Below are positions 11,169 to 30,095 of a stretch of 42,520 nt of DNA, in pieces. A program made the translations under genes and the position numbers. The first letter of the stretch is position 1. Each line of letters starts with the position of its first letter. Source of the DNA: Candidatus Eiseniibacteriota bacterium (GTDB lineage Bacteria > Eisenbacteria > RBG-16-71-46 > SZUA-252); the NCBI GenBank assembly GCA_041486815.1, contig JBGPMG010000002.1:1-42520 (forward strand), written 5' to 3'. The notes beneath the pieces were generated by a model. It was not told where the DNA came from. It searched no databases and worked only from the letters and a program-made list of their open reading frames with translations.

Positions 11169-11254
<86 letters not shown>

Positions 11255-11268
11255 AGGTCGAGTTCGAG

Positions 11269-11793
11269 CTACTTCGTGCCGGCCTTCTGGGGCGTCGCGC
11301 CGCCCTGAGGCGCGGAGGTCGCGCCGCCCTGAGGCGCGGGCGCCGAGGGCACCTGCGCCGGCGCGCTTCCCGGCGCCGGCATCGCAGCGCCAGGAGCCGT
11401 GGTCCCGGGCGCGGTGCTTCCGGGAGCCATCGCGCCAGGAGCCGTGGATCCAGGCGCCGTTCCGCCCGGCGAGCCCTGCTCCGCCGTCCCTCTCTGTTCC
11501 GCCCGGCGCTTCGCTTCCTCAATCATCAAGCTACGCCCGGCCGTCGCGTTCTGACGCGTCGACGCGAGGCCGAGCGTGAGTGAGGTCACGAAGAACACGA
11601 CCGCCAACGCCGTCGAGGCGCGCGTTAGGAAGGTCGCCGCTCCCCTTCCACCAAAAAGGGTCTGGCTCGATCCCGCGCCGAACGCGCCGGCAAGTCCGCC
11701 TCCCTTGCCCGACTGGAGCAGGATCGAAACAACCAACGCGACGCACGAGAAGATGTGGACTACCGAGATCATCGCGATCATGAAGCTGGACAT
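11269..11793 (-). CDS. secG: Preprotein translocase subunit SecG with a ~95-aa Pro/Ala/Gly-rich repetitive C-terminal tail
   Basis: The N-terminal ~78 aa (VVHIFSCVALVVSILLQSGKGGGLAGAFGAGSSQTLFGGRGAATFLTRASTALAVVFFVTSL) form the canonical two-TM SecG with its glycine-rich loop. Its position after tpiA is typical. The tail is TAPGSTAPGAMAPGSTAPGTTAPG..APQGGATSAPQGGAT. Confidence 0.88.
   Translation of the reverse strand: MSSFMIAMISVVHIFSCVALVVSILLQSGKGGGLAGAFGAGSSQTLFGGRGAATFLTRASTALAVVFFVTSLTLGLASTRQNATAGRSLMIEEAKRRAEQRGTAEQGSPGGTAPGSTAPGAMAPGSTAPGTTAPGAAMPAPGSAPAQVPSAPAPQGGATSAPQGGATPQKAGTK
11294..11447. repeat. Short in-frame tandem and dispersed repeats inside the secG tail
   Basis: gtcgcgccgccctgaggcgcgg occurs at 11294-11315 and again at 11318-11339 (24-nt period, encoding APQGGATS x2). 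gcgccaggagccgtgg occurs at 11387-11402 and 11432-11447 (45-nt period). Confidence 0.8.
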
Positions 11794-11862
11794 TCGCTTG
11801 CCTCCGACAAAATCCCTGAAGAAGGGCCAGTCAGCGAAGATACCACGGCGTCCCAGGAACGG

Positions 11863-12654
11863 TCAATCGGGGCTCCCCGATGCTCTCCCGGTGCTCCCGG
11901 CCGCCGCGGCCACCAAAGCGCCCGCGATCGAGAGAAACGCGGGTGCGTTCAGGGACGCCCCGCCCACGAGGAATCCGTCGACTTCCTGGAGTGCCGCGAG
12001 CGGCGCGGCGTTCTTCGGATCCACGCTGCCGCCGTAGAGGACCGGCGTGGAGGCTCCCGAGCCTGACCGTCCCAACGCTTGAAGCTCCGCCTGAACCCAG
12101 CCGTGTGACTCCGCTACCTGGTCGGGCGTCGCCACGACGCCCGTGCCGATCGCCCAGACCGGCTCGTAGGCCACGAGGAGCTGCGCCCGAGGAGGCGCCC
12201 CCTCCAGGGCCCGTGCCAGCTGCCGGGCGAGCACTTCCTGGGTTTCCCGGCGTTCGCGCTCCGCCAAGGTCTCGCCGACGCACAGAATCGGCGTAAGGCC
12301 CGCCCTCCAGGCGGCGCCGAGCTTGGCGCGCGCGATGAGATCGTTTTCGCAGAAGAGCCGCCGCCTTTCCGAATGACCCACCAGGACGTATTCGGCGCCC
12401 GCGTCGCGAGCCTGCTCCGCGGAAACCTCGCCGGTGAAGGCGCCGCGGGGCTCGGAGTGGCAGTTCTGGGAGCCGAGGGCCGGCTCCGCGCCGGCCCGGC
12501 CCTCGGCCAGCGCCGTCAGCGACGTGAAGGGTGGGAACACGATCATGGTCACGCCGGGATGAAGCTTTCGAGCGTCCGCGACGGCGGCGTAGAGTGTCCT
12601 CGCCTCGGCCACGGTGAGGTTCATCTTCCAGTTCGCCGCGAGAATCCGGCTCAC
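11863..12654 (-). CDS. tpiA: Triosephosphate isomerase
   Basis: ILAANWKMN, VGHSERR and AYEPVWAIGTG are seen. The GTG start overlaps the pgk stop (GTGA at 12651-12654). Confidence 0.95.
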   Translation of the reverse strand: MSRILAANWKMNLTVAEARTLYAAVADARKLHPGVTMIVFPPFTSLTALAEGRAGAEPALGSQNCHSEPRGAFTGEVSAEQARDAGAEYVLVGHSERRRLFCENDLIARAKLGAAWRAGLTPILCVGETLAERERRETQEVLARQLARALEGAPPRAQLLVAYEPVWAIGTGVVATPDQVAESHGWVQAELQALGRSGSGASTPVLYGGSVDPKNAAPLAALQEVDGFLVGGASLNAPAFLSIAGALVAAAAGSTGRASGSPD

Positions 12655-13862
12655 CGCGTCCTCGCCTTGGCCGAGGCCTCGAGCGCCGCGACGCCGGGGA
12701 GAATCTTCCCCTCGAGGAACTCGAGAGATGCCCCGCCGCCCGTCGAGCAGTGGCTGATCCTCGCTTCCACCCCTGCCGCCTTCACCGCGGCGAGCGAATC
12801 ACCTCCGCCGACGACCGTGAAGGCGCCGCGCTGGGTCGCTTTCGCGACCTCGCGCGCGACTCCGATTGTCCCCTCGGCGTACCGGGGAACCTCGAAAACC
12901 CCCATCGGCCCGTTCCAGAAGATCGTACGCGCATCCGAGATCGCCTCCGCGATCAGGGCAATCGACTCGGGCCCGATGTCCACACCGAGGTGGTCCGCGG
13001 GGATGGCGGTCGCCGCCACGACGCGGCCGGGGTCGCTCCCCGTGATGTCCTGCGCCACGAGGCAGTCCGACGGTAGGAGGATCTTGCGAGCCAGCGCGGG
13101 ATCCGCGAGCAGCTCCTTCGCCACGGAAACCCGATCCTCCTCGACGAGCGAGCGCCCCGTCTCCAACCCTCGCGCGCGGAGGAACGTGAACATCATCCCT
13201 CCCCCGATCACGAGACGATCCACCCGGGGCAATAGATTCCGGAGCACGTCGATCTTGCCTGAGATCTTGGCGCCGCCCAGGATCGCGACGTAGGGTCGGT
13301 CGGGCGCGGCGAGGAGCTTTCCGAGTGCCGTCAGCTCCCGCTCCAGAAGAAATCCCGCGGCCGTATCGGTGAGATAGCCCGTGATCCCTTCGATCGAGGC
13401 GTGAGCGCGGTGTGCCGCGCCGAACGCGTCGTCTACGTACGCCTCCGCGAGCGACGCCAGGCCGCGGCTGAATTCCGGATCGTTCTTCTCCTCCCGCGGA
13501 TCAAATCGGAGATTCTCGAGCAGGAGTACCCCTCCGTCCGGAACGGCGCGCGACGCCGCCTCCGCGGCGGGCCCGACGATCGATTCGGAGAACGCCACCG
13601 ACTGGCGCAAGAACCGCTCGAGCAGATCGCGCACCGGCCGGAGGCTCTGCTTCAGATCGGCCTTCCCCTTCGGCCGGCCGAGGTGGGACGCGATGACGAG
13701 CCGCGCCCCTTTGCCGATCAGGTAGCGGATGGTCGGGAGCGAGGCAACGATCCGGCTGTCGTCGGAGACCTTGCCGTCCGGCCCGAGCGGGACATTGAAG
13801 TCCACGCGGACGAATACGCGCCGACCGGAGACTTCGAGCTCGCTCAAACGGCGGAAGCTCAC
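12651..13862 (-). CDS. pgk: Phosphoglycerate kinase
   Basis: RVFVRVDFNVPL, ASHLGRPKG, ILGGAKISGKI, FWNGPMGVFE and STGGGASLEFLEG are seen. Confidence 0.96.
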   Translation of the reverse strand: MSFRRLSELEVSGRRVFVRVDFNVPLGPDGKVSDDSRIVASLPTIRYLIGKGARLVIASHLGRPKGKADLKQSLRPVRDLLERFLRQSVAFSESIVGPAAEAASRAVPDGGVLLLENLRFDPREEKNDPEFSRGLASLAEAYVDDAFGAAHRAHASIEGITGYLTDTAAGFLLERELTALGKLLAAPDRPYVAILGGAKISGKIDVLRNLLPRVDRLVIGGGMMFTFLRARGLETGRSLVEEDRVSVAKELLADPALARKILLPSDCLVAQDITGSDPGRVVAATAIPADHLGVDIGPESIALIAEAISDARTIFWNGPMGVFEVPRYAEGTIGVAREVAKATQRGAFTVVGGGDSLAAVKAAGVEARISHCSTGGGASLEFLEGKILPGVAALEASAKARTR

Positions 13863-13872
13863 CCGGCGTCTC

Positions 13873-14883
<1,011 letters not shown>

Positions 14884-15921
14884 CTAGCTGAAGAACACCC
14901 GGGCCATCTCGTAGAAGTCCGGCCCGACGGTCTTTAAGGTGCCGACCGCCTCCGCGATCGGCACGTCGACGATCTGAGTCCCCCGGATGGCGACCATGCG
15001 GCCAAAGCCCTTCCGCTCGACCAGGTCGACGGCCGCCACGCCGAATCGGGATCCGAGCACGCGGTCGAACGCGGTCGGCGAGCCGCCCCGCTGGATGTGC
15101 CCCAGGACGCTGTAGCGCGTCTCGTACCCCGTCTTCTCCTCGATCTGCTCCGCCAGGGAAGCTCCAATTCCACCGAGGCGCAGGTGGCCGAACGCATCGC
15201 GCCTCTCCGTCTGGACGTGGAGCGGCTTCCCCGCCTCGTCGGCGAGGAGCGCCCCTTCCGCGACCACGATGATGCTGAAATTCTTGCCCCGCTCGTGGCG
15301 ACGCCAGATGGCGGCACAGATCTCATGGAGCGGCACGGGGAACTCGGGGATCAGGATCATGTCCGCGCCGCCCGCGATCCCGGAGCAGAGCGCGATCCAA
15401 CCGGCGTGGCGGCCCATTACTTCGGCCACCATCACCCGATCGTGCGACTCCGCGGTGGTGTGGAGCCGGTCGATCGCCTCCGTCGCGATGGAGAGGGCGG
15501 TATCGAAGCCAAACGTGTAGTCGGTGCCGTTGACGTCGTTGTCGATCGTCTTCGGCACGCCGACCGCCGGAACGCCGGCGCGGTGAAGCTTCGCGGCCGT
15601 GCCGAGCGTGTCTTCTCCTCCGATCACGACCAGCGCGTCGATCTCGCGCCGCGCCAGGGTTGCCCGGATCCGGCTCTCGCCGTCCGCCTCTTTGTATGGA
15701 TTCGTGCGCGACGTGCCAAGGATCGTGCCGCCCCGCGGGAGAATCCCGGAGACCGACGCGAGGTCGAGCGGCTCGATCTCCTCGAGGAGGAGCCCCCGCC
15801 AGCCGTGGCGGATCCCCGCGACCGACCAGCCGTAGCTCTTGATCGCCCGCTGGACGACGGCCCGTATCACCGCGTTGAGACCCGGGCAATCTCCTCCGCC
15901 CGTCAGGACGCCAATCCGCAT
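14884..15921 (-). CDS. pfk: 6-phosphofructokinase, PfkA family (PPi-type/group III signature)
   Basis: MRIGVLTGGGDCPGLNAVIRAVV, VIGGEDTLG, VPKTIDNDVNGTDYTFGFDTA and EVMGRHAGWIAL are seen. The track ORF starts at TTG 15939. I prefer ATG 15921, which gives the canonical MRIGVLTGGG N-terminus. Confidence 0.9.
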   Translation of the reverse strand: MRIGVLTGGGDCPGLNAVIRAVVQRAIKSYGWSVAGIRHGWRGLLLEEIEPLDLASVSGILPRGGTILGTSRTNPYKEADGESRIRATLARREIDALVVIGGEDTLGTAAKLHRAGVPAVGVPKTIDNDVNGTDYTFGFDTALSIATEAIDRLHTTAESHDRVMVAEVMGRHAGWIALCSGIAGGADMILIPEFPVPLHEICAAIWRRHERGKNFSIIVVAEGALLADEAGKPLHVQTERRDAFGHLRLGGIGASLAEQIEEKTGYETRYSVLGHIQRGGSPTAFDRVLGSRFGVAAVDLVERKGFGRMVAIRGTQIVDVPIAEAVGTLKTVGPDFYEMARVFFS

Positions 15922-15978
15922 CGGCGCTTCAGCCCCCAAACAACTAACTTGTGGAATGACAGAAAGATAGAGCCGGAA

Positions 15979-16008
15979 AGTCTAGGGCGTGCCGGTGCTG
16001 AAAGTCAA
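15979..16008 (-). promoter_or_regulatory. Candidate sigma70-like promoter for the pfk-gap-pgk-tpiA-secG-tRNA unit
   Basis: The minus strand reads TTGACT (16008-16003), an 18-nt spacer, then TAGACT (15984-15979), in the only AT-richer gap upstream of pfk. Sequence pattern only. Confidence 0.35.
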
Positions 16009-16056
16009 GCGCGGCTTTAGGAATCCCGGCGTCAAAGGATGGGGCGCCGGCAGGCG

Positions 16057-17553
16057 TCAGTGGATTCCGGTGGTGGACGAGTACTTGAGCGTGTATTCGC
16101 CGAACCCCTGTGCATCAACGAAGACGAACTTGATTCCCGCGGCGATCTCGTTCATGCCGAATCGCGGAACAAGCTCGCGCCCCCGCATGTCGTAGGTCCA
16201 AATCTCGTAGGCGCGCGAGTCGGCGACACCGGACTTCGTGTCCGTGACTCCCTGCTTTGAGGAGCCCGGGATCTCTTCCCCGAGGGCGTAGCCCAGCGTC
16301 TTCCCCGCGACCGGCACTCGCTCGATCTTGATGTCGTCCGGTTCCCCGTAACGGATGTATACCCGGCCACGGTCGCTGAACATGCCCCTCTCGATGATCG
16401 AGTAGTGGGCGTTGGCGTAGTCGACGCGGCGCCGGAACTCCTCGCGGTTCTCATTGTCTCCGGTATCCGGCGTGGGATCCGCGCCTCTCCAAATCCGCTC
16501 GATCCATCGTTCCTTCTCGCCCATCGGGAGATCGCGGAAGAGCCGCGTCGAGTCCGAGGAGAGCAAGGTCGCGGCCGTCACGTCGTAGAGGTCGACCGCG
16601 TCCGCGTTCCACGAATCCAGAGACCAGAGAAGATCGAACCCGCCTTGGCTCCGGGCCAGGTCGCGGCCGGCCCCATCCTCGAGCGCCAGGACCATCTTGT
16701 AGTGCCCGGCCGGGTACTGCGTCATGTCGACTCCCATCGCGTGGGGCCACGCGGTGCCCTCGGAGATCCGCAACGAATCGAGGCTTGTGAACACCGTGTC
16801 CCCCGCCGCGTTCAAGATTCGAGCCGCGAGCATGTAGATCCGCCCTTCCGGCGGCGGAGGGGAGTCGTAGAGTTCGTAGTAGACCGAAACCGCGTCCTGG
16901 AAGTGGCCGAAATAGGCGCTCGGGTGGGGCATGACATCGTACGGCCCTTTGTGGAACGGGCTCCCCTCGACCCCTTCGCCGACCTCCCAGGCGAACTCGA
17001 GGCCGCTCAAGGCGGGATCGCGGAAGAGCCAATCCTGCATGTCGACCGTACCGTTGACTTCTCCCTGCTGCTTCTGATTCTTCATCTTGTAGACGAGCCC
17101 CTGGCGCGCCATGTTCATGTCTTCCACCAGAACCCGGTAGGTGTATTTCCCCGGCGGCGCCACCAGGCCCAGCGAGTAGACCTCGCCCAGCAGCGAGTCG
17201 GTCGTCGCGGCGAGATCGGTGCTTTGAAGCACGGCCTCCCGCTGGAGGAAACCCGCCCTCTTGCCCCCTGCGCTCCACATCTGAACGGTCAGACGGAGCC
17301 TTGCGGAGTAGCGATCTCCCTCGGGGATGAAATGAATCTCTTGGTAGGGAATCCGAATCGAGAACTCGGCGCGCCCCTCGCGGGCTCCCTGACGGAACGG
17401 AACCGCGTTGGCGTGAAATCGAAGGTCTCCCACCGAGGTGGCGGGATCTCCGATCGGTTGCTCGTGGGCTCCCAGGGTCCCGACCGCAAGCACCATGACC
17501 AGCCCCGCACGAGCCAGCGAGGCGATCAGGCGGCCGGGTCGAGTGCGCCTCAC
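16057..17553 (-). CDS. GWxTD-domain-containing secreted protein
   Basis: Signal peptide RLIASLARAGLVMVLAVGTLGA. The C-terminal region RIWRGADPTPDTGDNENREEFRRRVDYANAHYS..GMFSDRGRVYIRYGEPDDIKIE..YEIWTY fits the GWxTD-domain pattern (TIGR04514-like) as I remember it, with GWxTD degenerated to GMFSD. GTG start lies 17 nt after the porV stop. Confidence 0.7.
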   Translation of the reverse strand: MRRTRPGRLIASLARAGLVMVLAVGTLGAHEQPIGDPATSVGDLRFHANAVPFRQGAREGRAEFSIRIPYQEIHFIPEGDRYSARLRLTVQMWSAGGKRAGFLQREAVLQSTDLAATTDSLLGEVYSLGLVAPPGKYTYRVLVEDMNMARQGLVYKMKNQKQQGEVNGTVDMQDWLFRDPALSGLEFAWEVGEGVEGSPFHKGPYDVMPHPSAYFGHFQDAVSVYYELYDSPPPPEGRIYMLAARILNAAGDTVFTSLDSLRISEGTAWPHAMGVDMTQYPAGHYKMVLALEDGAGRDLARSQGGFDLLWSLDSWNADAVDLYDVTAATLLSSDSTRLFRDLPMGEKERWIERIWRGADPTPDTGDNENREEFRRRVDYANAHYSIIERGMFSDRGRVYIRYGEPDDIKIERVPVAGKTLGYALGEEIPGSSKQGVTDTKSGVADSRAYEIWTYDMRGRELVPRFGMNEIAAGIKFVFVDAQGFGEYTLKYSSTTGIH

Positions 17554-17570
17554 GGCGCCCGAATCCTGGA

Positions 17571-18563
17571 TTAGAAGCTCACGTTGAGCGAAACGTGATG
17601 CGCGTCCGAAAGAAACTTCAGATCCTGGTACGCGTAGTCGAGTCTCGCCACGGAGGACTTGATGACAGTCAGCGGGAACTTCACCCCAAATCCGGCGGTG
17701 AGCCCCTCGGTGTCGTAGTTCAATTTGTAGCCCCCGCGAAGGAACAGGTAATCGTGGAAGCCGTATTCCGCGCCCATGTTCAGCTTCTCCGAGTTGTCCG
17801 GCGGGTGCGTGAACTCGGCGGTCGTGATCAGCCGGCTCTCTCCCTGCTGGAACAACATCGCGGAGCCTCCCACCCGGAAGAAGACCGGCATCTTGACCTT
17901 CTCGTCGATGAACGTCATGTCGTTGCCGACGTTCTGGATCGCCATCCCGATCTTGGCGCCCAAGACCCCGATCTCGTAGAGCGTCCCGAAATCGAACGTC
18001 ACGGACTTCCCTTTGACGTCGTCGAGGCCCGTCTGTACGTAGTTGAGATTGAAGCCGGCGGAGAATTTATCTGTGAGGGCCCGGGCGTACGAGAGACCGT
18101 ACGTCCACTCGCCGGCGTCAAAGGTTTCGCCGGTCCCATCGGGCAGATATGTCGTCCGAACGATGTCTCGGCTCATCGTGAGCGCCCGGACGTTCACGCC
18201 GATCATCCCCGGGATCCACTTGATCGAGAAGACGTATCCCGCCTGGTCGAAGATGATGTCCGCGGGCCAAGCCGTGTGATTCAGCGTGATCGTCTGGCCC
18301 GAGAGTCGGGCGATCCCGGCCGGATTCCAGAAGACCGCGGTCGCATCGTCCGCGATGGCGACATAGGCGTCGCCCATGGCGTTTGCTCGCGCGCCGACCC
18401 CCATCTTGAGCGACTGCCCCCCCAACGTGCCGACCTTTTCAAATATCTGCGCCGCCTCGGCCGGGAGTGGGAGTGACAGGCAGACGGCGATCACGATCGC
18501 GATTCTCACGAAGTTCCTCCTTAGATTTCCCACGAGCCGGTGGACTGTTCCGGCCGGTCTCAT
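17571..18563 (-). CDS. porV: PorV/PorQ-family outer-membrane beta-barrel (type IX secretion shuttle-like)
   Basis: GARANAMGDAYVAIADDATAVFWNPAGIA is the signature N-terminal strand region of the PorV/PorQ family. Alternating beta-strand pattern throughout, ending in ..HVSLNVSF (aromatic terminus). The track ORF starts at 18668. I place the start at ATG 18563, which overlaps the upstream stop as ATGA and gives the signal peptide MRPAGT..IAIVIAVCLSLPLPAEA. Confidence 0.82.
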   Translation of the reverse strand: MRPAGTVHRLVGNLRRNFVRIAIVIAVCLSLPLPAEAAQIFEKVGTLGGQSLKMGVGARANAMGDAYVAIADDATAVFWNPAGIARLSGQTITLNHTAWPADIIFDQAGYVFSIKWIPGMIGVNVRALTMSRDIVRTTYLPDGTGETFDAGEWTYGLSYARALTDKFSAGFNLNYVQTGLDDVKGKSVTFDFGTLYEIGVLGAKIGMAIQNVGNDMTFIDEKVKMPVFFRVGGSAMLFQQGESRLITTAEFTHPPDNSEKLNMGAEYGFHDYLFLRGGYKLNYDTEGLTAGFGVKFPLTVIKSSVARLDYAYQDLKFLSDAHHVSLNVSF

Positions 18564-21346
18564 CGTACGATCACGAATCTGCCGACTTTCCGCCCCAGCT
18601 CGGTGTCGACGGAGTAGAGATAGATCCCGCTCACGATCTTCTGGCCGTTCCGCGAGATGAGATTCCACGGCATCGAGCCTTGCCCGGCCGTAACGGGATC
18701 CTTCCCGAACTGGAGATCCGCGGCGACCCTGCCGTCAAACGGGATGTCTTTCACCAAGTCCCCCGCCAAGGTGTAGATGTGAATGGTTCCCTTGGTCCGG
18801 GGAAGATTCATGAACGTCACCTTGGTGCCGGACGGATCCTCTTCCCGCGGGATCAGATCCCATTCAGCGTGCCCCTTGTAGGGATTCGGAACGACGAAGA
18901 CGTCCTTCTCGGTCGGCTTCGAAGCTCCCCTCGGGTAGACCACCTGCGAGTTCGTCGCGCTCGGATTTCCGCTCAAGACGATATCGGTCGCCGAGGTTTC
19001 GCCCGGTACGATCGACACCGGAACAATCGAGTAGAAATAGGCGAACCCGTTCAAGACCTTGTCGTCGACATAGCTGTACCGGCCGATCGCGAAGAGCGAG
19101 TCGGTCTCGATGTAAGTCGAATCGTTGAAGACCCGGCGGCCGACCGGGTCCCACCGGACCCTCACGTCGTGGTGCTCCACGAGCGGAGCGCTGGGATCGA
19201 TCAGCTCCCCGAGTGGCCGGGCAGGCGTCCCCTTGGGATTGATCCGCCATTCTCCCAAAAGCGTCCACAAATTTTGGGCCGGTGCGTTCGTGCCGAGCGG
19301 TCGATTCCATCCCGAGGCCTTGTAGATCCGATATCCCGCGAACTCCTTGAGATTTCCACGCTGCGCGTCCCGGATCTGCTCCGCGAAGTTGCTCCATTTC
19401 AGGGTGACTTTGTTGTCTCCCGGGAAAAACCATGCCGAAATGCGGGTCGAGTCGGCGTGGGTCTCGTAGATGGGTATGAAATCCCTGGGCTCGGAATTCC
19501 CGTTGTTTCCCTGGAAGAACGGCGATGGGAGCGGTGCTGCGGCGACCCAGTTCACGATCTGCTCGCGGCCCCCCTGGCCGGTGTTCACGTCGCAATCGAA
19601 ATCCACGTAGGTGCAATTCGTGTTGGAGACGACCACGTCCAACGTGTCGGCGGAGGCGCAGTGCGTCAAGGACGGAGAAACCTGATCGACGCAGACGAAC
19701 TTCCCAGCCTGCTGATTCTCGCACGGAGTGCCCGGATCCCACGCCGAGACGCCCTCATACCGCGGGTCGTTCGGGATCGAGCTGTGGAAGCGGACGCGGC
19801 AGATCGAGGACTCGGGAATCTGGTACGTGAACGCCCTCCCTCCGGAGATGTTCCGGAGGCAGGTTTCCTTGCCGCAGGTCCCGGTCCGCACGTTGTTGTC
19901 GAGGTCGGTATAAAGGCCGTCGAATACCTGCTGGGCGGAGATGGCGTCGCCGATCAGAGTTCCATTCACTTCATTGGGTCCGCCGCGTCCGATTCCCGCC
20001 ACCCAGGCCACAGAGACGGTGAGCGTGGAATCCGGGAGGATCTGCCGGAACGGGCCAGTCGCCATGATGAACCGGTAGTCGAGCGGCCGCCCCGACGTGT
20101 AGACGATGCTGTTCGTCGGATTGTTCGGGTTATACCGAGGGTCCGACATCAGCTGGTAGCGCTCGGCGTCGTTCCCCGGATCGCCACCCGCACCGAAGGA
20201 GGCCGAGCCGGAGAAGAACTTGAACGCGGTGATGCCGACCCGGGGGGGCGCCGTGGCGCCAGACGGGTCGGTCGTGTGGTTGAGGAACATGCAGCCGAAG
20301 TAGCCCGGAACGTCGCCGCCCTTGTTGTCCTGTGGACGGTTCGGGTTGTCGGGGTTGTCCCAGGCGTAGGCCATCTGGATCCGGCGACGGACCGCCTCCC
20401 CCGCGGGACCGATATACGAGACCGTCGAATCGAATAGGGCCGCCTCGTCGTCCGTGAAGTACCCGGTGACCGCGCGGTTGCCGACGTCCGGATCGGCGAA
20501 GATCGCGACGAACACGTTCCGAAGGGCGCGGCCGCTCTGGTTGGTGATTCGATAATCCATTCCGACGAAATCGCTCTGGCCCGGGGTCGACCACGCGTAG
20601 CTGGTCTGGCGAACCCGGATGCCGAGAGCGACGTGCTCCGGATTGATCTGCCGGATCGCCGGGAGGTCGTCCCGGTACTCGCAGGAGAACATCTGCTGGC
20701 CGATGGCCGAGTAGTCCTCGTCGCAGAGTCCGTCGCCGTCATCGTCGATCCCGTTCAGGAAGTCCTCGTCCACGAAACCGTCGTTGTCGTCGTCGGGGCT
20801 CAGGCTGGCCGAGATCACTCGGTTTCCGCCGGGGATGCCCTCGTAGGCCTCGCGCACGTCAGCGACCTGGTCGATCGGCACGGGCGCGCAGGGGTGGGCG
20901 GGATTCGTCTCAGGCGAAAACTCCACGTTGTAAGCGGCCGTGGTCACATGGGGGATTCCGCTCGCGTCGATCGCACCCACCCAAAGGCCTGCGGTGTACA
21001 GATAGTCGTTCCCAGAGCCGGGAGGATACTCGGCGGACGGGACCGTCGTTCGAGACGGGTTCGCGGCGTTCCCCGTTTGGCCGATGTTCGTGATCTGCAA
21101 ATGAAGCCGGCCGACGTTGTGCACGAACTTCCCGTCGAGCCGGAAGGTCTTGTTCATGTACTGCTTCATGATGCCGTCAGGGTCGCCATCCGGAGGCTGA
21201 TAGAAGGCCGAAACGCCACCCCAGAGAATCAGCGCCGACGCGAAGACGCCGGCGCGCCGCGCGGCGCGAATGACGCCTCGCGGCAGGCACGTCCGACCGT
21301 CTGAATCCTCTTTCTGCTCTTGGCGCAACGCGCGCGAGTAAGTCAT
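18560..21346 (-). CDS. Large secreted protein (928 aa) with an acidic DxDxDG-type calcium-binding segment and a T9SS-type (Por_Secre_tail/FlgD-Ig-like) C-terminal domain
   Basis: Signal-anchor-like N-terminus RAARRAGVFASALILWGGVSAF. PDDDNDGFVDEDFLNGIDDDGDGLCDED at nt 20714-20794. Cys-rich middle region. C-terminus VVPNPYKGHAEW..GTIHIYTLAGDLVKDI..WNLISRNGQKIVSGIYLYSVDTELGRKVGRFVIVR. The ATG lies 2 nt after the TBDR stop. I recognise no catalytic family. Confidence 0.7.
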   Translation of the reverse strand: MTYSRALRQEQKEDSDGRTCLPRGVIRAARRAGVFASALILWGGVSAFYQPPDGDPDGIMKQYMNKTFRLDGKFVHNVGRLHLQITNIGQTGNAANPSRTTVPSAEYPPGSGNDYLYTAGLWVGAIDASGIPHVTTAAYNVEFSPETNPAHPCAPVPIDQVADVREAYEGIPGGNRVISASLSPDDDNDGFVDEDFLNGIDDDGDGLCDEDYSAIGQQMFSCEYRDDLPAIRQINPEHVALGIRVRQTSYAWSTPGQSDFVGMDYRITNQSGRALRNVFVAIFADPDVGNRAVTGYFTDDEAALFDSTVSYIGPAGEAVRRRIQMAYAWDNPDNPNRPQDNKGGDVPGYFGCMFLNHTTDPSGATAPPRVGITAFKFFSGSASFGAGGDPGNDAERYQLMSDPRYNPNNPTNSIVYTSGRPLDYRFIMATGPFRQILPDSTLTVSVAWVAGIGRGGPNEVNGTLIGDAISAQQVFDGLYTDLDNNVRTGTCGKETCLRNISGGRAFTYQIPESSICRVRFHSSIPNDPRYEGVSAWDPGTPCENQQAGKFVCVDQVSPSLTHCASADTLDVVVSNTNCTYVDFDCDVNTGQGGREQIVNWVAAAPLPSPFFQGNNGNSEPRDFIPIYETHADSTRISAWFFPGDNKVTLKWSNFAEQIRDAQRGNLKEFAGYRIYKASGWNRPLGTNAPAQNLWTLLGEWRINPKGTPARPLGELIDPSAPLVEHHDVRVRWDPVGRRVFNDSTYIETDSLFAIGRYSYVDDKVLNGFAYFYSIVPVSIVPGETSATDIVLSGNPSATNSQVVYPRGASKPTEKDVFVVPNPYKGHAEWDLIPREEDPSGTKVTFMNLPRTKGTIHIYTLAGDLVKDIPFDGRVAADLQFGKDPVTAGQGSMPWNLISRNGQKIVSGIYLYSVDTELGRKVGRFVIVR

Positions 21347-21348
21347 CG

Positions 21349-24099
21349 TCAGAATTGAACCCCCACCCCAACCCGGATCACGCGCCCCTGTTGAAAGACG
21401 CGCGGATCATTGACCGTGAACCAGTCGTCTTGACCGTCCCCGTTCAGATCCTGGGTCAGGAAAGCTCCACCGGCTCGGCCAGTTTCCGTGTAGTACACGA
21501 TGTACGAATGCGAGTTGACTTGGTTGTCCGGCCAGAGGCTCGGCTGCAGGTCGGTGATGTTTTTCGCGTCGAGCAGATTGGAGCCCTGGACATAGAACGT
21601 CACGTTCTGGCCCCAGACGCGGAAGAACCGTTCTCCCTGGACCGAAAGGGTGGAGGTTGAGGGGAGCCTGCTCGCGTTTACCGTCGTGGGATCGGTCCGG
21701 CGCTGCGTACGCTGTTCCTTTGTGTACGGGAAGCCGGTGCCGAACTGGTAGACAAAGCTGGTAGCCCAGTCCTTCTCGTTCCCTAGCCGGAGAGTCGCCG
21801 AGATGCTGTGCCGCTGATCCCAATCGAGAGGCTGTTCGGACGTCGGCTTGAACTGATCTCGAAGATTGCCGGAGCTCGTGAGCGCGCGGTTCGGATCGGA
21901 CGCGGTCCCGGTCGCGTTGCCGAAGGTGTAGTTGAACTCGCCGGAGAAGCCGTGGCTGTGCCTCTTGATCACCGTGACCTCGATGCCGCGCGAGGAGGCG
22001 TAGTCCCCGTTGACGCGCGTGGGCACCGTGATCGCAAACCCGGGAACCTCCTGATCCACCGTCGTGAGAAGGCCGAAGATGTCTTTGAAATAGACGCCGA
22101 ACTGCCCGTAGATCTCCTTGCTGAACAGGTGCTGCACTCCGAGCTGGTAGGAGATCGTCGTCTGGGGCTCGAGGTTGGGGTTGCCGCGGGCCTCGGCGGA
22201 AATATTCCGCCCCTGGTAGAGATAGAGCCGATCCGGCACCTGGAAGAGACGGCCATAGTGGAAGCTCATGACGTCTCGATCCGAGATCGGATAGGCGATC
22301 CCGATGCGGGGGCTCACCTGAGTCTTCACCTTCTTGGCGACCAGGGCCGAGGAGATCTGGTTCCCGACCGAGAAGTTGTCGTAGCGGACACCCGCGTTGA
22401 GGACCATCCCCTCGTACTCCCAGCGATCCTGCGCGAAGAACGATCCCTCGGGGTTGAAGTTCCGGAACTCATCACGGGTCGCGCCGTAGTCGCCGTTCGC
22501 GTCCAGGATGTTCGGGAACTGCGTTAGGAGGAACGACAGGTTGTTGTAGTTGATGTCGCCGCCGAGCATGATGTTGTGCGGATGCCCACCTTCCTCGATG
22601 GACTTGCCGACTTTCCGCGAGTAGTCGCCGTTCAGGGTGTACGTGACCGTGTTGCGGCGTTCATAGAACGGATAGTCGCCGTTGGTCACGTAGTAGGCGC
22701 CGTCGATCCGGTTCTGCGGGTCGTAATACTGATTCGGGTTCTGCTCGTACTCCCAAAGCTGGCGGTTAAGCACGCTCTCGAGGGACTGCCACTGTTGCCG
22801 TGACGCCCGGACGTTGTAGATCTGGCCGTTCTGGGATCCCAGCACGTGCTTCCAGGTCAGGGCGACCTGCTGGTAGCTCGCGTCGATCACGGGAAGATGA
22901 TCCGCCGTGTTCATCGGAATGTAGCTGGAGTCGACCGGATAGTACGACCACCGACCGTACCGCCGCGTGATCGTGCCGTCACTCGGGGCCGTGCTGTCCT
23001 GAATCACCTGTACGAAGCCCTTCCGATTCCACCGGTTCTGGTACTTGCCGTCGACCGAATTGTTCTGGATGAACTCCAGATTCAGCTTCTCATTGGGCGT
23101 GACCTTGTACGTGAGCTTGCTGGATAGGTTCGATCCGTTCGCCTGCCGGAGCCCCGTCCGGATGAAATCCAGGAATCGGTGCTCGTTGTGTTGCGAGGTG
23201 TTCCGGAGATACGTGTCGGTGTAGGTTCCCTCGTAGGAGACGTAGTAGTTCGTCCTGGAGAACAGGAACGGGCCGCCGATGCCCACGCTCAATCGCTCGA
23301 AGTTGTTGAACTCCTTGTCGTGCTCACCGTACCGATCGGTGAAGTAGCGGGCCTCCCCCGCGAACTTATCGCCGCCCTCCCGCGTGGTCAGGTTGATCAC
23401 CCCGGAGAGGGCGTTTCCGTACTGGGCGTCGAGCCCTCCCAGGACCTGCTCGCTCGAGGAGACCGCCAGGAGACCCAGCTCCACGCCCTCGGCCCGGAGC
23501 GGGTTTCGGCTTGCGATCCCGTTGACGACCGTGAGGACCTCGTCCGCGCGCCCACCTCGGAAATGAAGCTCGCCATTCTGGCTGATGACGCCCGCCTTGA
23601 GCCCGATCGCGTCCCTGTAGCTGTCGACAGGAAGAGAATGGAGATCCTCGCTCGTGACGATCTGGCGGGTAGAGCTGTCCTTCTTTCGGATCGCGATCTT
23701 CAGGTTGCCTGTGACGTCAAACGTCTTCAGCTGGATCGCCTTCTCGGTCAGCTTGAAATCGAGTGAGGTCGTCTTGTTCGCGTCGATGCGAACTGCGGGC
23801 CGCTCTTGTTTCGCGAAGCCGACCATGCTCACGCGCACGGTGTAGACGCCGACAGGGACCTTGATGATGGTGAAAACGCCTTGAGCATTTGTCTGGCCGC
23901 CGCTCGAAGCGCCCAGCACCGTCACGTTCGCGTACTGCTGCGGGATGCCCGCGTCGTCCGTCACCTTTCCGGTAATCGTTCCGGTTTGGGCGAAAGCGGC
24001 GCCGGCGGAGAGAATCAATAGCAAGGAGAGGAAACCGAAGGCGAGTGACGGCGGAGTTACGTCGGGGGAGCCGCCGCGTCGCGACGCGTAATTCGGCAT
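21349..24099 (-). CDS. TonB-dependent receptor-like outer-membrane barrel with an N-terminal carboxypeptidase-regulatory-like domain (SusC/RagA-like architecture)
   Basis: GTITGKVTDDAGIPQQYANVTVLG..GVYTVRVSMVGFA is the CarboxypepD_reg fold. SEDLHSLPVDSYRDAIGLKAGV..LHFRGGRADEVLTVVNG..LDAQYGNALSGVINLTTREG is the plug domain. A ~700-aa barrel follows, ending in VGVGVQF. I place the start at ATG 24099 (AAGGAG at 24116-24111, then signal peptide ..LSLLLILSAGAAFAQ); the track ORF extends to 24174. Confidence 0.85.
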   Translation of the reverse strand: MPNYASRRGGSPDVTPPSLAFGFLSLLLILSAGAAFAQTGTITGKVTDDAGIPQQYANVTVLGASSGGQTNAQGVFTIIKVPVGVYTVRVSMVGFAKQERPAVRIDANKTTSLDFKLTEKAIQLKTFDVTGNLKIAIRKKDSSTRQIVTSEDLHSLPVDSYRDAIGLKAGVISQNGELHFRGGRADEVLTVVNGIASRNPLRAEGVELGLLAVSSSEQVLGGLDAQYGNALSGVINLTTREGGDKFAGEARYFTDRYGEHDKEFNNFERLSVGIGGPFLFSRTNYYVSYEGTYTDTYLRNTSQHNEHRFLDFIRTGLRQANGSNLSSKLTYKVTPNEKLNLEFIQNNSVDGKYQNRWNRKGFVQVIQDSTAPSDGTITRRYGRWSYYPVDSSYIPMNTADHLPVIDASYQQVALTWKHVLGSQNGQIYNVRASRQQWQSLESVLNRQLWEYEQNPNQYYDPQNRIDGAYYVTNGDYPFYERRNTVTYTLNGDYSRKVGKSIEEGGHPHNIMLGGDINYNNLSFLLTQFPNILDANGDYGATRDEFRNFNPEGSFFAQDRWEYEGMVLNAGVRYDNFSVGNQISSALVAKKVKTQVSPRIGIAYPISDRDVMSFHYGRLFQVPDRLYLYQGRNISAEARGNPNLEPQTTISYQLGVQHLFSKEIYGQFGVYFKDIFGLLTTVDQEVPGFAITVPTRVNGDYASSRGIEVTVIKRHSHGFSGEFNYTFGNATGTASDPNRALTSSGNLRDQFKPTSEQPLDWDQRHSISATLRLGNEKDWATSFVYQFGTGFPYTKEQRTQRRTDPTTVNASRLPSTSTLSVQGERFFRVWGQNVTFYVQGSNLLDAKNITDLQPSLWPDNQVNSHSYIVYYTETGRAGGAFLTQDLNGDGQDDWFTVNDPRVFQQGRVIRVGVGVQF

Positions 24100-24198
24100 G
24101 GCGTGGAGCGCTCCTTTCGTCGGTCGGGCCATCACGCTGGGGTGATCACTTTTATGCCGCTTTCGGCCGGTCAAGTCAATCCAATTCGTTGCGACACG

Positions 24199-24261: not shown

Positions 24262-24388
24262 ATTGTAGCATCGGCGGGGGGTCTAGAACTGTGTTCTGGG
24301 GGGGGCTCGTGAAACCTGCGTGGATCAAGTACTTACTGCCTCTGTGGTAGAAGTATATCCAGTTCCTCCGATTCGGCAAGGCCTTTTT

Positions 24389-27195: not shown

Positions 27196-28815
27196 CTAAA
27201 AGAGTCGCTGGATGGTGAGGGTCATGCTGTCGCCGTATCCCAGCTCTTCGGAGGGATCGTTCGGCGAACGGCTGAAGTGATAATGCGCGAGCGATAGGTC
27301 GATCCGCGAGTCGAACGCGCTCCAGAAGTAGCCGGCGCCCGCCGTCACTCCGAACCCCTTGAGAGGACCATACAGATCGCCTCGGTTGGGGTCGTGGCGG
27401 ATGATCTCGACGCCGCCCCGGAGAGGGAGGCGCGGGCGCACCGGGTACTCCGCGCCGAAGTGATACGAGTAAGTGATGAGCGAGATATCGGGGACCTCGT
27501 GCGTGAAGTCCTGGCGGTACTCCCTCGCGACGCGCGCTTCGACCGCGACCAGGCCCTGGTCGGCGCCGCCGACCGAGAAGCCGCTTGCGAATCGATAGCC
27601 CGAGCGCTTCACGTCGAGTGGATCGACGGTCGGGAGCACGACGTCGTTCGGGTGGATCCATTCATATTGGCGGAAGTAGGCATAGCTCAAGCCCACGTGA
27701 ACGGGCTTTCCAGGCAACCCGATCAGCCATCGCGTGCTCCCCTCGTTGTGTCGCAGGCCGCTGAGAAATGCCGACCAATTGCGCTTGAAGACGTTCACCT
27801 GGTTGTTGATCGATGGGTTCGGATTCATGAAGAACTGGGGTGCCCAGTTGACCCGGGCGATCTCCTCGCCGTCGAAGGAGCGATGGCGTCCGTCGAAGAT
27901 CGCGCGGAGCCACTCTCCCCGCTTCACGAAGATCGCGCCGCCGTAGGCGACCTGCGGGCGATCCCAGTCATATTCGTCGTCGTTCAGGGACGACTGGCTT
28001 CTCCCCGTGACCTTGTGCCTCATCGCCGCTCCCCACCCGGAGACGCTTACCGAGCCGCCCCAGATCGGCAGCGGGCAGTACGCGCCCCCCGTGAATTCGG
28101 CGGCGTTGCTGCTCACGTTGAGGTCGTAGGGCTGCCGGATGCGGCGGTCCTCAGCTTCGTGCCGGAATCCCGCCCGGGCCCCGAACGTCACGTTTCCGAA
28201 GAAGGTCCGGGCGTAGGTCACCGCCCCAAGTGGAGTCTGCACGCCCGCGCCGAATGTCCTGTCGGTCGTTACCGGACTCATCTGTGGAGCGACCGGCAGA
28301 TCGAAATCGCGGATGAAGCGGCAGTCGTCGGGGGTGGGACAGAGGTCGTGCCGGCTCGCGGCGAGCGCGCCGTAATCGACGTCCGCGGCCATTCCCCACC
28401 GCTGGCTCGGCCGGAATTCGCCGTGGAATCCCGCCCCGCGCCCTACGGCGCTGTGGCTCAGCCCGTAGTAACGATCATTGAAGCCCTGGTAGCTCGTGGG
28501 AATCACGACGACGGAAGTGTCGCCCGACACCAGGAGCGCCGCGGGATTCCGGCCGTAGTGGTACGGATCGATCAGGCTCTGGTCGTCCTCGACCGCGACC
28601 TCGACCGACCCCATTCCCTGGAGGCGCGTCGAGTGCATGCCGGCGTAAGCCTCGACCGGCGTATACCGGAGCCAGGCGTCGGCGATTTGCGCGGCCGCGG
28701 GACGGGCGTCGAGTCCCGCGGTCGAGAGGATCAGCGCGAGAACCGACGGCGGACCGAGCCAGGCGGCGAGCGCGGCGCGCGCGCAGTGTTCAGCGGAACT
28801 CGATCGGTGGGTCAT
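27196..28815 (-). CDS. Hypothetical outer-membrane beta-barrel protein (539 aa)
   Basis: Signal peptide ..LALILSTAGLDARPAAAQ. Rich in alternating aromatic/Gly strands. OMP-type C-terminus ..MTLTIQRLF. I recognise no family. Confidence 0.6.
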   Translation of the reverse strand: MTHRSSSAEHCARAALAAWLGPPSVLALILSTAGLDARPAAAQIADAWLRYTPVEAYAGMHSTRLQGMGSVEVAVEDDQSLIDPYHYGRNPAALLVSGDTSVVVIPTSYQGFNDRYYGLSHSAVGRGAGFHGEFRPSQRWGMAADVDYGALAASRHDLCPTPDDCRFIRDFDLPVAPQMSPVTTDRTFGAGVQTPLGAVTYARTFFGNVTFGARAGFRHEAEDRRIRQPYDLNVSSNAAEFTGGAYCPLPIWGGSVSVSGWGAAMRHKVTGRSQSSLNDDEYDWDRPQVAYGGAIFVKRGEWLRAIFDGRHRSFDGEEIARVNWAPQFFMNPNPSINNQVNVFKRNWSAFLSGLRHNEGSTRWLIGLPGKPVHVGLSYAYFRQYEWIHPNDVVLPTVDPLDVKRSGYRFASGFSVGGADQGLVAVEARVAREYRQDFTHEVPDISLITYSYHFGAEYPVRPRLPLRGGVEIIRHDPNRGDLYGPLKGFGVTAGAGYFWSAFDSRIDLSLAHYHFSRSPNDPSEELGYGDSMTLTIQRLF

Positions 28816-28828
28816 TCGGAGATCGGGC

Positions 28829-30028
28829 TCACGGCCTCAAGTAGACGGGAATGAGGGAGGACCGGCTGGACGTCTTGGTGGCCCCGTCATAGATCGTGAT
28901 CCGCATCAGGTACCGGCGTCCGGGCACGAGCTGCACGTCGTCGGGCCATGGATCTCCTTGAACCTGGCTGGAGTCTGGTGGTTGTCGAGCGATGAGGTCC
29001 CGCCGAACCTCGAGGGCCCATTTGCCCGCGAGCCAAGCACCCTTCCCGATCACGTCTCGCTGGCTCCCGGTGGGCATGCTGGTCCTGAAGGAGGGAACGT
29101 AGTCGCCCGGATTCCAGCTCTTGTCCCGCACGCCCGCGTCATCCTCGCGCATCGGGTTATTGAGCTCGCAGGGACCCATCGGCTTTTCCACGTACGACCA
29201 GACCACATATTGTGACGGCTTGGCTCGGTTGAGCCTGCTGTCGCGGGTCCCCTTCGAGACGATGAACAGAGGGACGTTCGATCCGGGATTGTGATTGGTC
29301 AGGATATAGGTCCAATTCCCGACGTCGCGTACCGGGCCGCCTCCCATGTCGTAGAGGTCTTCAAAGTAGCCGGCCCCTGGATGGGTCGTGGCGCCCAGCG
29401 TGTCGCCGGTCGTATTCGCTCCGACGAACTCGGTTCCGTTGACTGGAGTGCACAGATCGGTCGTCTCCGCTCCCCAGCGCCACACATCGGCCGGGAAGGA
29501 TCCGAGAGAGTCCGAGAACATCTCGATCGTTACCTGGTCTTCCTGATCCGAGGAGCGGGACCAGGAGCTTTCCCGGATCAGCGTGTCATTGGTCTGGCAG
29601 TGAATCAGGGTATCGCCCCCCACATCCGAGAGAACGTCCGCGCTGGTTATCAGCGGCTCTTGGAGCCGGTTCTCCGTGCGGTCGGGCCACTCGAGGAGCA
29701 GGTAGAACCCGTCTGTCTCGTTAAATTGGTTGATGGTCCAGAGGCTTCGGACCAAGACGTAGTAGTTGCCGCCGCCGCCGGCGCCACCTTGAAGCAGGAT
29801 TACGGAGGGATTGCCGGTCAGGTCCCATTCGATGTTGGTCACCCTGCCGTCGATCAGGAGCTCTCGAGACTCCCGCTGCGACGAGTTCAGGAACCGCTCG
29901 AAGCCCCGGACCGCGACGACGTCGGATTTCGGATTGGGCTGGGTGAGTTTGGATTTGCCGCACGAAATCGTCCCCGCGGCGGCGATGGCAATAAGAATCC
30001 CTGCTCGAACGATGCCCGCGCGAAACAT
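28829..30028 (-). CDS. Lipoprotein with an ethylbenzene-dehydrogenase-gamma-like (EB_dh/DOMON/CBM9-like) domain
   Basis: I prefer ATG 30028, with GAGGAG at 30039-30034 and a 5-nt spacer; the track start is GTG 30046. Lipobox ..IAIAAAGTIS-C-GK. FYLLLEWPDRTEN and DQVTIEMFSD..ADVWRWGAETTD resemble the EB_dh family motifs (..W.D.t.d.., ..D.vai.f..diWhWka..) as I recall them. Confidence 0.5.
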   Translation of the reverse strand: MFRAGIVRAGILIAIAAAGTISCGKSKLTQPNPKSDVVAVRGFERFLNSSQRESRELLIDGRVTNIEWDLTGNPSVILLQGGAGGGGNYYVLVRSLWTINQFNETDGFYLLLEWPDRTENRLQEPLITSADVLSDVGGDTLIHCQTNDTLIRESSWSRSSDQEDQVTIEMFSDSLGSFPADVWRWGAETTDLCTPVNGTEFVGANTTGDTLGATTHPGAGYFEDLYDMGGGPVRDVGNWTYILTNHNPGSNVPLFIVSKGTRDSRLNRAKPSQYVVWSYVEKPMGPCELNNPMREDDAGVRDKSWNPGDYVPSFRTSMPTGSQRDVIGKGAWLAGKWALEVRRDLIARQPPDSSQVQGDPWPDDVQLVPGRRYLMRITIYDGATKTSSRSSLIPVYLRP

Positions 30029-30095
30029 CTGTGCTCCTCGGATCACTCGGACCTGGGGGGAACTGACGTAGAGTAAGAAGCGACGCGCTCGACTG

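Follow-up and report, generated by a model that had tools for sequence, protein, structure and literature searches.

A putative cell-surface protein of an unnamed family, encoded between a TonB-dependent-receptor-like barrel and a PorV/PorQ-family barrel in Candidatus Eiseniibacteriota

The stretch of DNA analyzed here (the window) is 42,520 nucleotides long and corresponds to positions 1 to 42,520 of contig JBGPMG010000002.1 in assembly GCA_041486815.1, from a Candidatus Eiseniibacteriota bacterium. On its minus strand lies a set of four genes, encoding in order a TonB-dependent-receptor-like barrel (TBDR), a 928-residue protein that we call X, a barrel of the PorV/PorQ family, and a GWxTD-domain protein. 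The coordinates of the genes, of the domains of X, and of the associated signals are listed in Table 1. A preliminary description of this DNA had placed X in the position occupied by porU, upstream of porV, and had considered it to be a very divergent PorU, a non-orthologous replacement for PorU, or a dedicated client of PorV. The analyses described below are best explained if X is displayed at the cell surface, as a member of an unnamed family that is found across the Fibrobacterota-Chlorobiota-Bacteroidota (FCB) group.

Table 1. Genes, domains of X and signals of the four-gene set, in window positions. ORF, open reading frame; T9SS, type IX secretion system; CTD, C-terminal domain; FN3, fibronectin type III; pLDDT, predicted local distance difference test score.
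Feature	Positions	Strand	Remarks
TBDR, with CarboxypepD_reg N-domain and plug	21349..24174	minus	longest ORF 941 aa; likely start near 24099
X, 928 aa	18560..21346	minus	ORF; unnamed family, T9SS-type CTD
X residues 1-67, variable leader with signal-peptide-like hydrophobic helix (~30-47)	21146..21346	minus	alignment and model
X residues 68-480, β-supersandwich, family-defining domain	19907..21145	minus	pLDDT mostly 86-98
X residues 185-211, two DxDxDG-type acidic loops	20714..20794	minus	motif and conservation
X residues 481-600, Cys-rich insert, 8 Cys	19547..19906	minus	specific to long subfamily
X residues 636-800, FN3-like β domain(s)	18947..19441	minus	strands 639-792 in model
X residues 815-928 (~114 aa), T9SS type-A-like CTD	18563..18904	minus	distinctive variant; strands 817-927 in model
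Shine-Dalgarno (18522-18515) and conserved GTG start (18509-18507) of PorV-family gene, AAGGAGGA	18507..18522	minus	kept in 10/10 related loci
PorV/PorQ-family 14-strand (FadL-like) outer-membrane barrel	17571..18509	minus	~312 aa from GTG start
GWxTD-domain protein, 498 aa, fourth gene of the set	16057..17553	minus	TIGR04514 and Pfam GWxTD_dom
Sigma-70-like promoter match upstream of TBDR gene	24352..24379	minus	consensus matches only, 9/12
Second sigma-70-like promoter match, beyond GWxTD gene	15979-16008		consensus matches only, 9/12

Searches with the whole of X gave no match in Pfam or NCBIfam (at E ≤ 0.1) or among PDB sequences. Its structure was predicted using AlphaFold2 from 102 diverse sequences, giving a model with a pLDDT of 83.3 and a predicted template modeling score of 0.85; this supersedes a run on 31 close homologues, which gave a pLDDT of 49. 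The model is all-β, with short helices only. The open reading frame noted in the preliminary description stands, as do the acidic loops, the mid-protein cysteines (at least eight had been counted), the C-terminal domain, and the lack of a recognizable signature of C25 peptidases or PorU; the translational coupling to porV and the PorU identity that it had suggested are not supported.

The leader of X is poorly conserved in the alignment of close relatives, where a hydrophobic stretch precedes the sequence FYQPP, and in the model it has low pLDDT with a helix at residues 25–45; it may be a cleaved signal peptide. The supersandwich that follows is matched by Foldseek to the supersandwich domains of diamine oxidase, of glycoside hydrolase (GH) families GH94, GH116 and GH63, and of dextran dextrinase (in the carbohydrate enzymes, accessory domains), and to the P1 domain of YidC, with E-values of 1e-6 to 1e-3. 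The top match, copper amine oxidase (template modeling score, TM, 0.2–0.24), was rejected as an identity for X: only the supersandwich is shared, and a single His is conserved family-wide. The N-terminal domains of GH94 cellodextrin/cellobiose phosphorylase, GH116 and GH63 have the same galactose-mutarotase-like fold as X residues ~68–480 (~270–490 aligned columns), but are only 7–13% identical to it, and X has neither an (α/α)6 catalytic domain nor any CAZy-related match, and carries two DxDxDG loop inserts of its own. These two acidic loops are the best-conserved stretch of the family, with 69–85% identity in every alignment set, and D186, D187, D189, E194, D201, D203, D205, D209, E210, and D211 are each at least 90% conserved among 102 family members. 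The motif suggests that the loops bind calcium.

The cysteine-rich insert contains eight cysteines (C491, C496, C516, C542, C552, C563, C578, and C585) that are invariant among 31 close relatives and may form disulfide bonds. The region is covered by only 35 of the 102 family members; many shorter relatives do not have it. The FN3-like region that follows, matched by Foldseek to FnIII domains of LAR and titin (E 9e-5 and 5e-4), carries the conserved motif PGD.KVTL.W..F.GYRIY.

The C-terminus of X is, on the comparison of profiles and of the model, an immunoglobulin (Ig)-like β-sandwich homologous to the solved T9SS CTDs, as its description as a Por_Secre_tail/FlgD-Ig-like domain had implied. 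When the family profile was compared with the PDB, the matches were confined to the tail: first the CTD of PorZ (5m11 residues 666–757, E 6.4e-8) and that of PorU (6za2 residues 1050–1154, E 3.1e-6), then the Ig domains of FlgD. Foldseek likewise matched the CTD of the model to PorZ 5m11, with an E-value of 1.8e-5. X does not itself match TIGR04183, the classical tail model; homologous tails do, in 31 of 64 distant relatives at E ≤ 1e-3, and the score of P0124, one of the relatives, is 24.6 bits where the cut-off is 23. All matches of relatives to the PorU, PorZ, and M6/M36 models lie within the CTD portions. The variant found in X has the motif VVPNPY ... IYTLAGDLV ... WNLISRNGQ.IVSGIYLYSV ... 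GRFVIVR, and nearly every family member ends with a tail of the form W(D/N)...SG(I/V)Y...(K/R)hhhh(K/R). No other domain of X is as well conserved as the CTD: it is 78% identical in close relatives, compared to 73.5% for the N-terminal module, and 61% compared to 52% in a mid-distance set. This fits a CTD that is retained and binds a partner.

The position of X upstream of a PorV-family gene resembles that of porU in Bacteroidota; this, together with its large size and a CTD like that of PorU, is what suggests that X could act in the T9SS of this lineage as its C-terminal signal peptidase or sortase, being either a divergent PorU or a non-orthologous one. The position stands, but the host belongs to Eisenbacteria and the barrel is not a PorV equivalog, making the analogy weaker than had been assumed. 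X has no match to Peptidase_C25 or to NF033707, either as a whole protein at E ≤ 0.1 or in its N-terminal and middle regions at E ≤ 10, and where its relatives align with NF033707, they do so solely over profile positions ~993–1078 of 1095, which is the CTD. The profile alignment of the X family with PorU is similarly limited to PorU residues 1050–1154 of 1156. The fold comparison gave no likeness to PorU beyond this (TM 0.08–0.09 against 6za2, about one domain), and showed instead the supersandwich, the FnIII domains, and the PorZ-type tail; the caspase-like α/β domain is absent from the model. No cysteine reaches 90% conservation across the 102 family members, and H238 is the only near-invariant histidine; the ten cysteines that are invariant in close relatives of X sit in subfamily-specific regions. 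There is therefore no invariant His/Cys dyad. Furthermore, there are several paralogues per genome, roughly half of which have no porV neighbor, and a related trio of genes is found on a plasmid (see below). We therefore reject X as a C25 sortase, and consider any identity with PorU to be very improbable.

The downstream barrel scores 189.8 bits against NF033709 (PorV_fam; cut-off 90), which places it in the PorV/PorQ subfamily. It falls well below the cut-offs of the equivalog models, scoring 70.1 bits against 250 for PorV (NF033710), 78.3 against 220 for PorQ (NF033711), and 59.5 against 325 for PorV2 (NF052325), and it matches the solved PorV of F. johnsoniae (6h3i_F) only weakly, with an E-value of 1.9e-4. 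By these profile scores it is a PorV/PorQ-family member that is neither a PorV, a PorQ, nor a PorV2 equivalog.

The preliminary description had the stop codon of X overlapping the start codon of porV in an ATGA tetranucleotide, implying translational coupling and fixed stoichiometry. The tetranucleotide is present, at 18563–18560, because the last Arg codon of X, CGA, precedes TGA, and is a by-product of this rather than the start of the barrel gene. In a comparison of ten related loci, two (L004 and L016) have the overlapping ATG in a different frame from porV, and a third has TTG in its place. The start that is kept in all ten is a GTG or ATG located 5–6 nt past a GAGGAGG Shine-Dalgarno sequence, and gene callers also chose this downstream start at L001 and L004. 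Counted to the GTG at 18509, the spacer between the two genes is ~50 nt. With the genes this far apart and a conserved start downstream, translational coupling and fixed stoichiometry are therefore unsupported; the two genes are probably co-transcribed. The spacer contains a GC-rich stretch, GACCGGCCGG...CCACCGG (window 18536–18559, minus strand), that is similar across the ten loci. It was considered as an RNA fold and rejected, as its folding is no better than that of shuffled sequences (z −0.87).

Only 2 nt separate the stop of the TBDR gene from the start of X. The TBDR product matches the Pfam models TonB_dep_Rec_b-barrel (E 2.5e-24) and CarboxypepD_reg (E 2.2e-18), and Plug weakly; an NCBIfam profile search gave no match to the SusC/RagA model TIGR04056. 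The fourth protein scores 71 bits against TIGR04514 (cut-off 28), with an E-value of 1e-5 for GWxTD_dom. Terminator-like sites within the set are no more numerous than expected from shuffled sequence, and promoter-like sites bracket it. On these consensus matches we tentatively suggest that the four genes probably form a single transcription unit.

A profile search of 1.84 billion representative sequences found 4136 relatives of X at E ≤ 1e-3 and 340 at E ≤ 1e-30. The relatives share the N-terminal module (approximately residues 50–480), and many also share the C-terminal third. There are 273 close relatives, of which the best 120 are 61–86% identical to X; those that are named are nearly all metagenome-assembled genomes (MAGs) of Candidatus Eisenbacteria. 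The family has no Pfam or NCBIfam model. Its gene set is also undescribed: we found no paper that joins Eisenbacteria with T9SS and none in which GWxTD is mentioned, and the papers found to combine PorV-like or PorQ-like with TonB-dependent terms do not describe the set.

Genomic context was then examined using one genome per species, which gave more than 445 loci encoding family members. The best 79 are labeled mainly as Eisenbacteria, Krumholzibacteriota/-ia, and Latescibacterota. A few contigs are labeled Binatia, Limnocylindria, or Saccharimonadales (L009, L012, L076, and L079); their genes are 65–70% identical to Eisenbacteria copies or occur in the same set, which suggests that they are mis-binned MAG contigs. 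Of 80 family copies, 38 have a PorV-family gene as the immediate downstream neighbor of X. Where both flanks are available (66 copies), 32 have the arrangement TBDR, X, PorV-family gene, 33 have neither neighbor, and just one has the PorV-family gene only. The GWxTD gene follows the PorV-family gene in 31 of the 33 linked loci with enough flanking sequence, and the linked trio persists down to ~30% identity in X. On a FastTree tree of the family, linkage is strongly clustered, requiring 10 changes compared to 25.9 when labels are shuffled. It occurs on deep branches, with linked copies in MAGs labeled Eisenbacteria, Krumholzibacteriota, and Latescibacterota, and stand-alone or tandem paralogues arise repeatedly. 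Thus the linkage to porV is kept within the linked lineage and lost in the paralogues; one MAG (GCA_036380835.1) has two copies of X, only one of them beside barrel genes. Tandem pairs of X-family genes that have no TBDR or PorV, or an extra copy just upstream of the linked set, occur in Krumholzibacteriia-type MAGs (L033, L037, L050, L060, and L061) and also at L023 and L032, indicating recent local duplication.

A tblastn search of plasmids with the barrel identified a more distant example on pRMAR01, a 125-kb plasmid of Rhodothermus marinus DSM 4252 (NC_013502.1, record positions 11170–21117; L086), in which a TBDR (RMAR_RS14120) is followed by an 1132-residue hypothetical protein (RMAR_RS14115) and then by a PorV/PorQ-family protein (RMAR_RS14110). 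The 1132-residue protein scores 235 bits against the hidden Markov model of the X family, and has the same variant tail, ending in GKFAVIK. The TBDR is 26% identical to that of the window over 858 residues (E 1e-66), and the barrel shows the same pattern as ours, falling within the subfamily model and below the equivalogs. There is no GWxTD gene in this trio, the gene after the barrel not being a GWxTD homologue. The neighbors are an FG-GAP repeat protein before the trio and, after it, a protein of the “peptidoglycan recognition family” and then a serine hydrolase; a type I-U CRISPR-Cas locus lies a few kb away.

We propose that X is a surface subunit exported by T9SS, held by its CTD on its own PorV/PorQ-like barrel, and working together with the TBDR, a proposal that we judge to be about equally likely to be right or wrong. 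SprB is held on SprF in the same way as PorZ on PorQ and PorU on PorV. X would cross the inner membrane by Sec, and the outer membrane by a type IX-like pathway that recognizes the C-terminal β-sandwich. The CTD would then be retained and would dock on the extracellular face of the adjacent barrel; we propose retention because the nearest solved CTDs, those of PorZ and PorU, are themselves retained and dock on PorQ and PorV. The calcium-loop supersandwich, the Cys-rich insert, and the FN3-like stalk would point outward, probably as a ligand-capture partner of the upstream TBDR, so that X would take the part that SusD/RagB or BtuG lipoproteins have in Bacteroidota. The ligand may be a glycan, as the predicted fold alone would suggest, and the GWxTD protein would be a fourth subunit. 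The individual elements have precedents. The CTD of PorZ is uncleaved, and PorV and PorQ serve as the anchors of PorU and PorZ (PMC8545088). Type B cargo is anchored by FadL-family barrels whose genes lie beside those of the CTD clients (PMC9143113), and in the BAM complex of Bacteroidota a surface protein is held by BamG, a FadL-type barrel that is itself docked on a larger one (PMC12578637).

Several observations weigh against this proposal. Against the Pfam CTD models, X itself reaches only E 0.09 for FlgD_ig and E 0.18 for Por_Secre_tail, both below threshold, and the supersandwich fold names no ligand. At the loci examined, the set has no genes for carbohydrate-active enzymes (CAZymes) or for other parts of an uptake pathway beside it. 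The public sequencing runs that contain the stretch are DNA metagenomes of sediment and soil only, with no RNA runs. Half of the family copies stand alone, and X can evidently function without an adjacent barrel or transporter. Finally, in 17 of the 25 linked loci that have at least 6.5 kb of downstream sequence, the set is followed directly by (pfk)-(gap)-pgk-tpiA-secG, and with such neighbors a core role in the envelope is at least as fitting as nutrient capture.

The stand-alone and tandem copies, about half of the family, with neither TBDR nor PorV, would be expected if X were ordinary T9SS cargo, that is, a binding protein or enzyme that is secreted or anchored in the manner of anionic lipopolysaccharide (A-LPS) attachment, with its adjacency to the barrel reflecting shared regulation or inherited synteny. 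Many shorter relatives do carry a classical TIGR04183 tail, and the set is embedded in strongly conserved housekeeping synteny, so that its linkage could be partly passive. However, the linkage is close to all-or-none in the 66 copies counted above, and it persists to ~30% identity and into Rhodothermota. In addition, the CTD is more conserved than the N-terminal module, which would not be expected of a signal that is lost by cleavage, and its best PDB matches are to CTDs that are retained. We therefore consider ordinary cargo unlikely, and of the roles suggested in the preliminary description we favor that of a dedicated client of the PorV-family barrel, given the persistence of the trio and the conservation of the CTD.

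The conserved place beside pgk-tpiA-secG suggests a further alternative, in which the four genes encode a core envelope or secretion-accessory machine, X being a non-catalytic counterpart of PorZ or PorU (for example, in the delivery or recognition of a surface glycan or lipid to which other CTD cargo would be attached) and the barrel being the general shuttle of the lineage. The closeness of the CTD to those of PorZ and PorU is consistent with this, as is the finding that, where two contigs from a single MAG were available, only one copy in the genome was linked. The window also encodes two other CTD-type proteins, recognized by weak FlgD_ig-type matches, which suggests that such a pathway exists in the organism. 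Against this, no attachment complex is known to include a plugged TonB-dependent barrel; the copy in R. marinus resides on a plasmid, suggesting an accessory function; and the barrel scores below the cut-offs of both the PorV and the PorQ equivalogs. PorZ provides a model for such an X, since it too binds glycan, has no enzymatic activity, and is held as a CTD protein on a barrel of the FadL type (PMC8545088). On balance this alternative appears improbable to us, and we retain the proposal of a barrel-held partner of the TBDR. The pgk-tpiA-secG arrangement holds even at ~30% identity in X; the loci to which this observation refers are 11269–16057 in the window and L001, L004, L007, L016, L018, L019, L028, L029, L036, L038, L045, L051, L069, L076, L078, and L082–L084. 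Eight loci do not have it, and these, where labeled, are mostly from Krumholzibacteria-type MAGs.

Comparison with characterized systems shows that the gene set varies known themes of anchoring and of transporter partnership. The closest likeness is to PorZ–PorQ and PorU–PorV of the T9SS attachment complex of Porphyromonas gingivalis. In each there is a large surface protein whose CTD is retained on a 14-strand FadL-type barrel (PMC8545088), as the CTD of X may be; their CTDs are the best PDB matches of that of X, and the partner barrel of X fits the PorV/PorQ subfamily model. X differs in having neither the two β-propellers of PorZ nor the C25 domain of PorU, its barrel falls below the PorV and PorQ equivalogs, the pair is flanked by TBDR and GWxTD genes, which are found in no known attachment complex, and the host lies outside Bacteroidota. 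SprB–SprF and PG1035–PorP similarly consist of a CTD protein and an adjacent gene for a cognate FadL-family barrel, used for secretion and anchorage (PMC9143113); in contrast to these, the CTD of X is of type A/FlgD-Ig (TIGR04183 in its relatives) rather than type B, and its barrel is of the PorV/PorQ rather than the PorP/SprF type.

On the transporter side, SusC/SusD, RagA/RagB, and BtuB–BtuG resemble the X set in that the gene for a TonB barrel of the CarboxypepD_reg type is followed, here after 2 nt, by the gene for a large extracellular protein, in a pairing that is conserved in many genomes. In comparison to SusC/SusD and BtuB–BtuG, the TBDR of the window does not match TIGR04056; X is all-β with a CTD, in contrast to the helical SusD lipoproteins, and lacks both a SusD-like Pfam match and lipobox-based surface export; and the linked set always adds a PorV/PorQ-like barrel, with no linked CAZymes or regulator.

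A broader proposal is that TBDR, X, PorV/PorQ-like barrel, and GWxTD protein form one outer-membrane machine, ancestral to FCB phyla (Eisenbacteria, Krumholzibacteriota, Latescibacterota, and Rhodothermota), in which a gated, TonB-energized barrel is physically coupled through a FadL-type barrel to a surface subunit that is delivered by the type IX pathway and held by its CTD. We regard this as speculative and rather doubtful. If true, the machine would provide a third route, besides lipoprotein export and A-LPS attachment, to a complex of barrel plus surface protein, and may represent an ancestral use of PorQ/PorV-type anchoring.

Two other regions of the window, both on the minus strand, can be noted. 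Window positions 27196–30046, upstream of a tldD/pmbA pair, encode an EB_dh/DOMON-like protein (a weak match, E 4e-4) and a 539-residue protein, for which Pfam and NCBIfam searches gave no match; the order of these genes is retained in L001 and L004. The regions 32173–34101 and 34046–36853 encode large proteins of 642 and 935 residues with weak FlgD_ig-type C-terminal matches (E 2e-4 and 7e-6, respectively), the larger of which also has a sub-threshold match to a β-propeller repeat model. Taken as longest open reading frames, they overlap by 56 nt.

Knowledge of T9SS comes almost entirely from a few Bacteroidota, and the X family may inform how CTD proteins are kept at the cell surface and which roles PorV/PorQ-family barrels have beyond the attachment complex. 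The family is undescribed and its gene set is widespread: there are thousands of representatives, with an unusually well-conserved CTD, and the family is genetically tied to its own barrel and TBDR in several phyla for which no cultured model exists. The plasmid copy in R. marinus DSM 4252 makes the idea of a complex of X, barrel, and TBDR testable at the bench. If such a complex is real, it would link TonB-dependent transport with type IX surface display, and would give a functional label to several “hypothetical” genes in many soil and sediment genomes.

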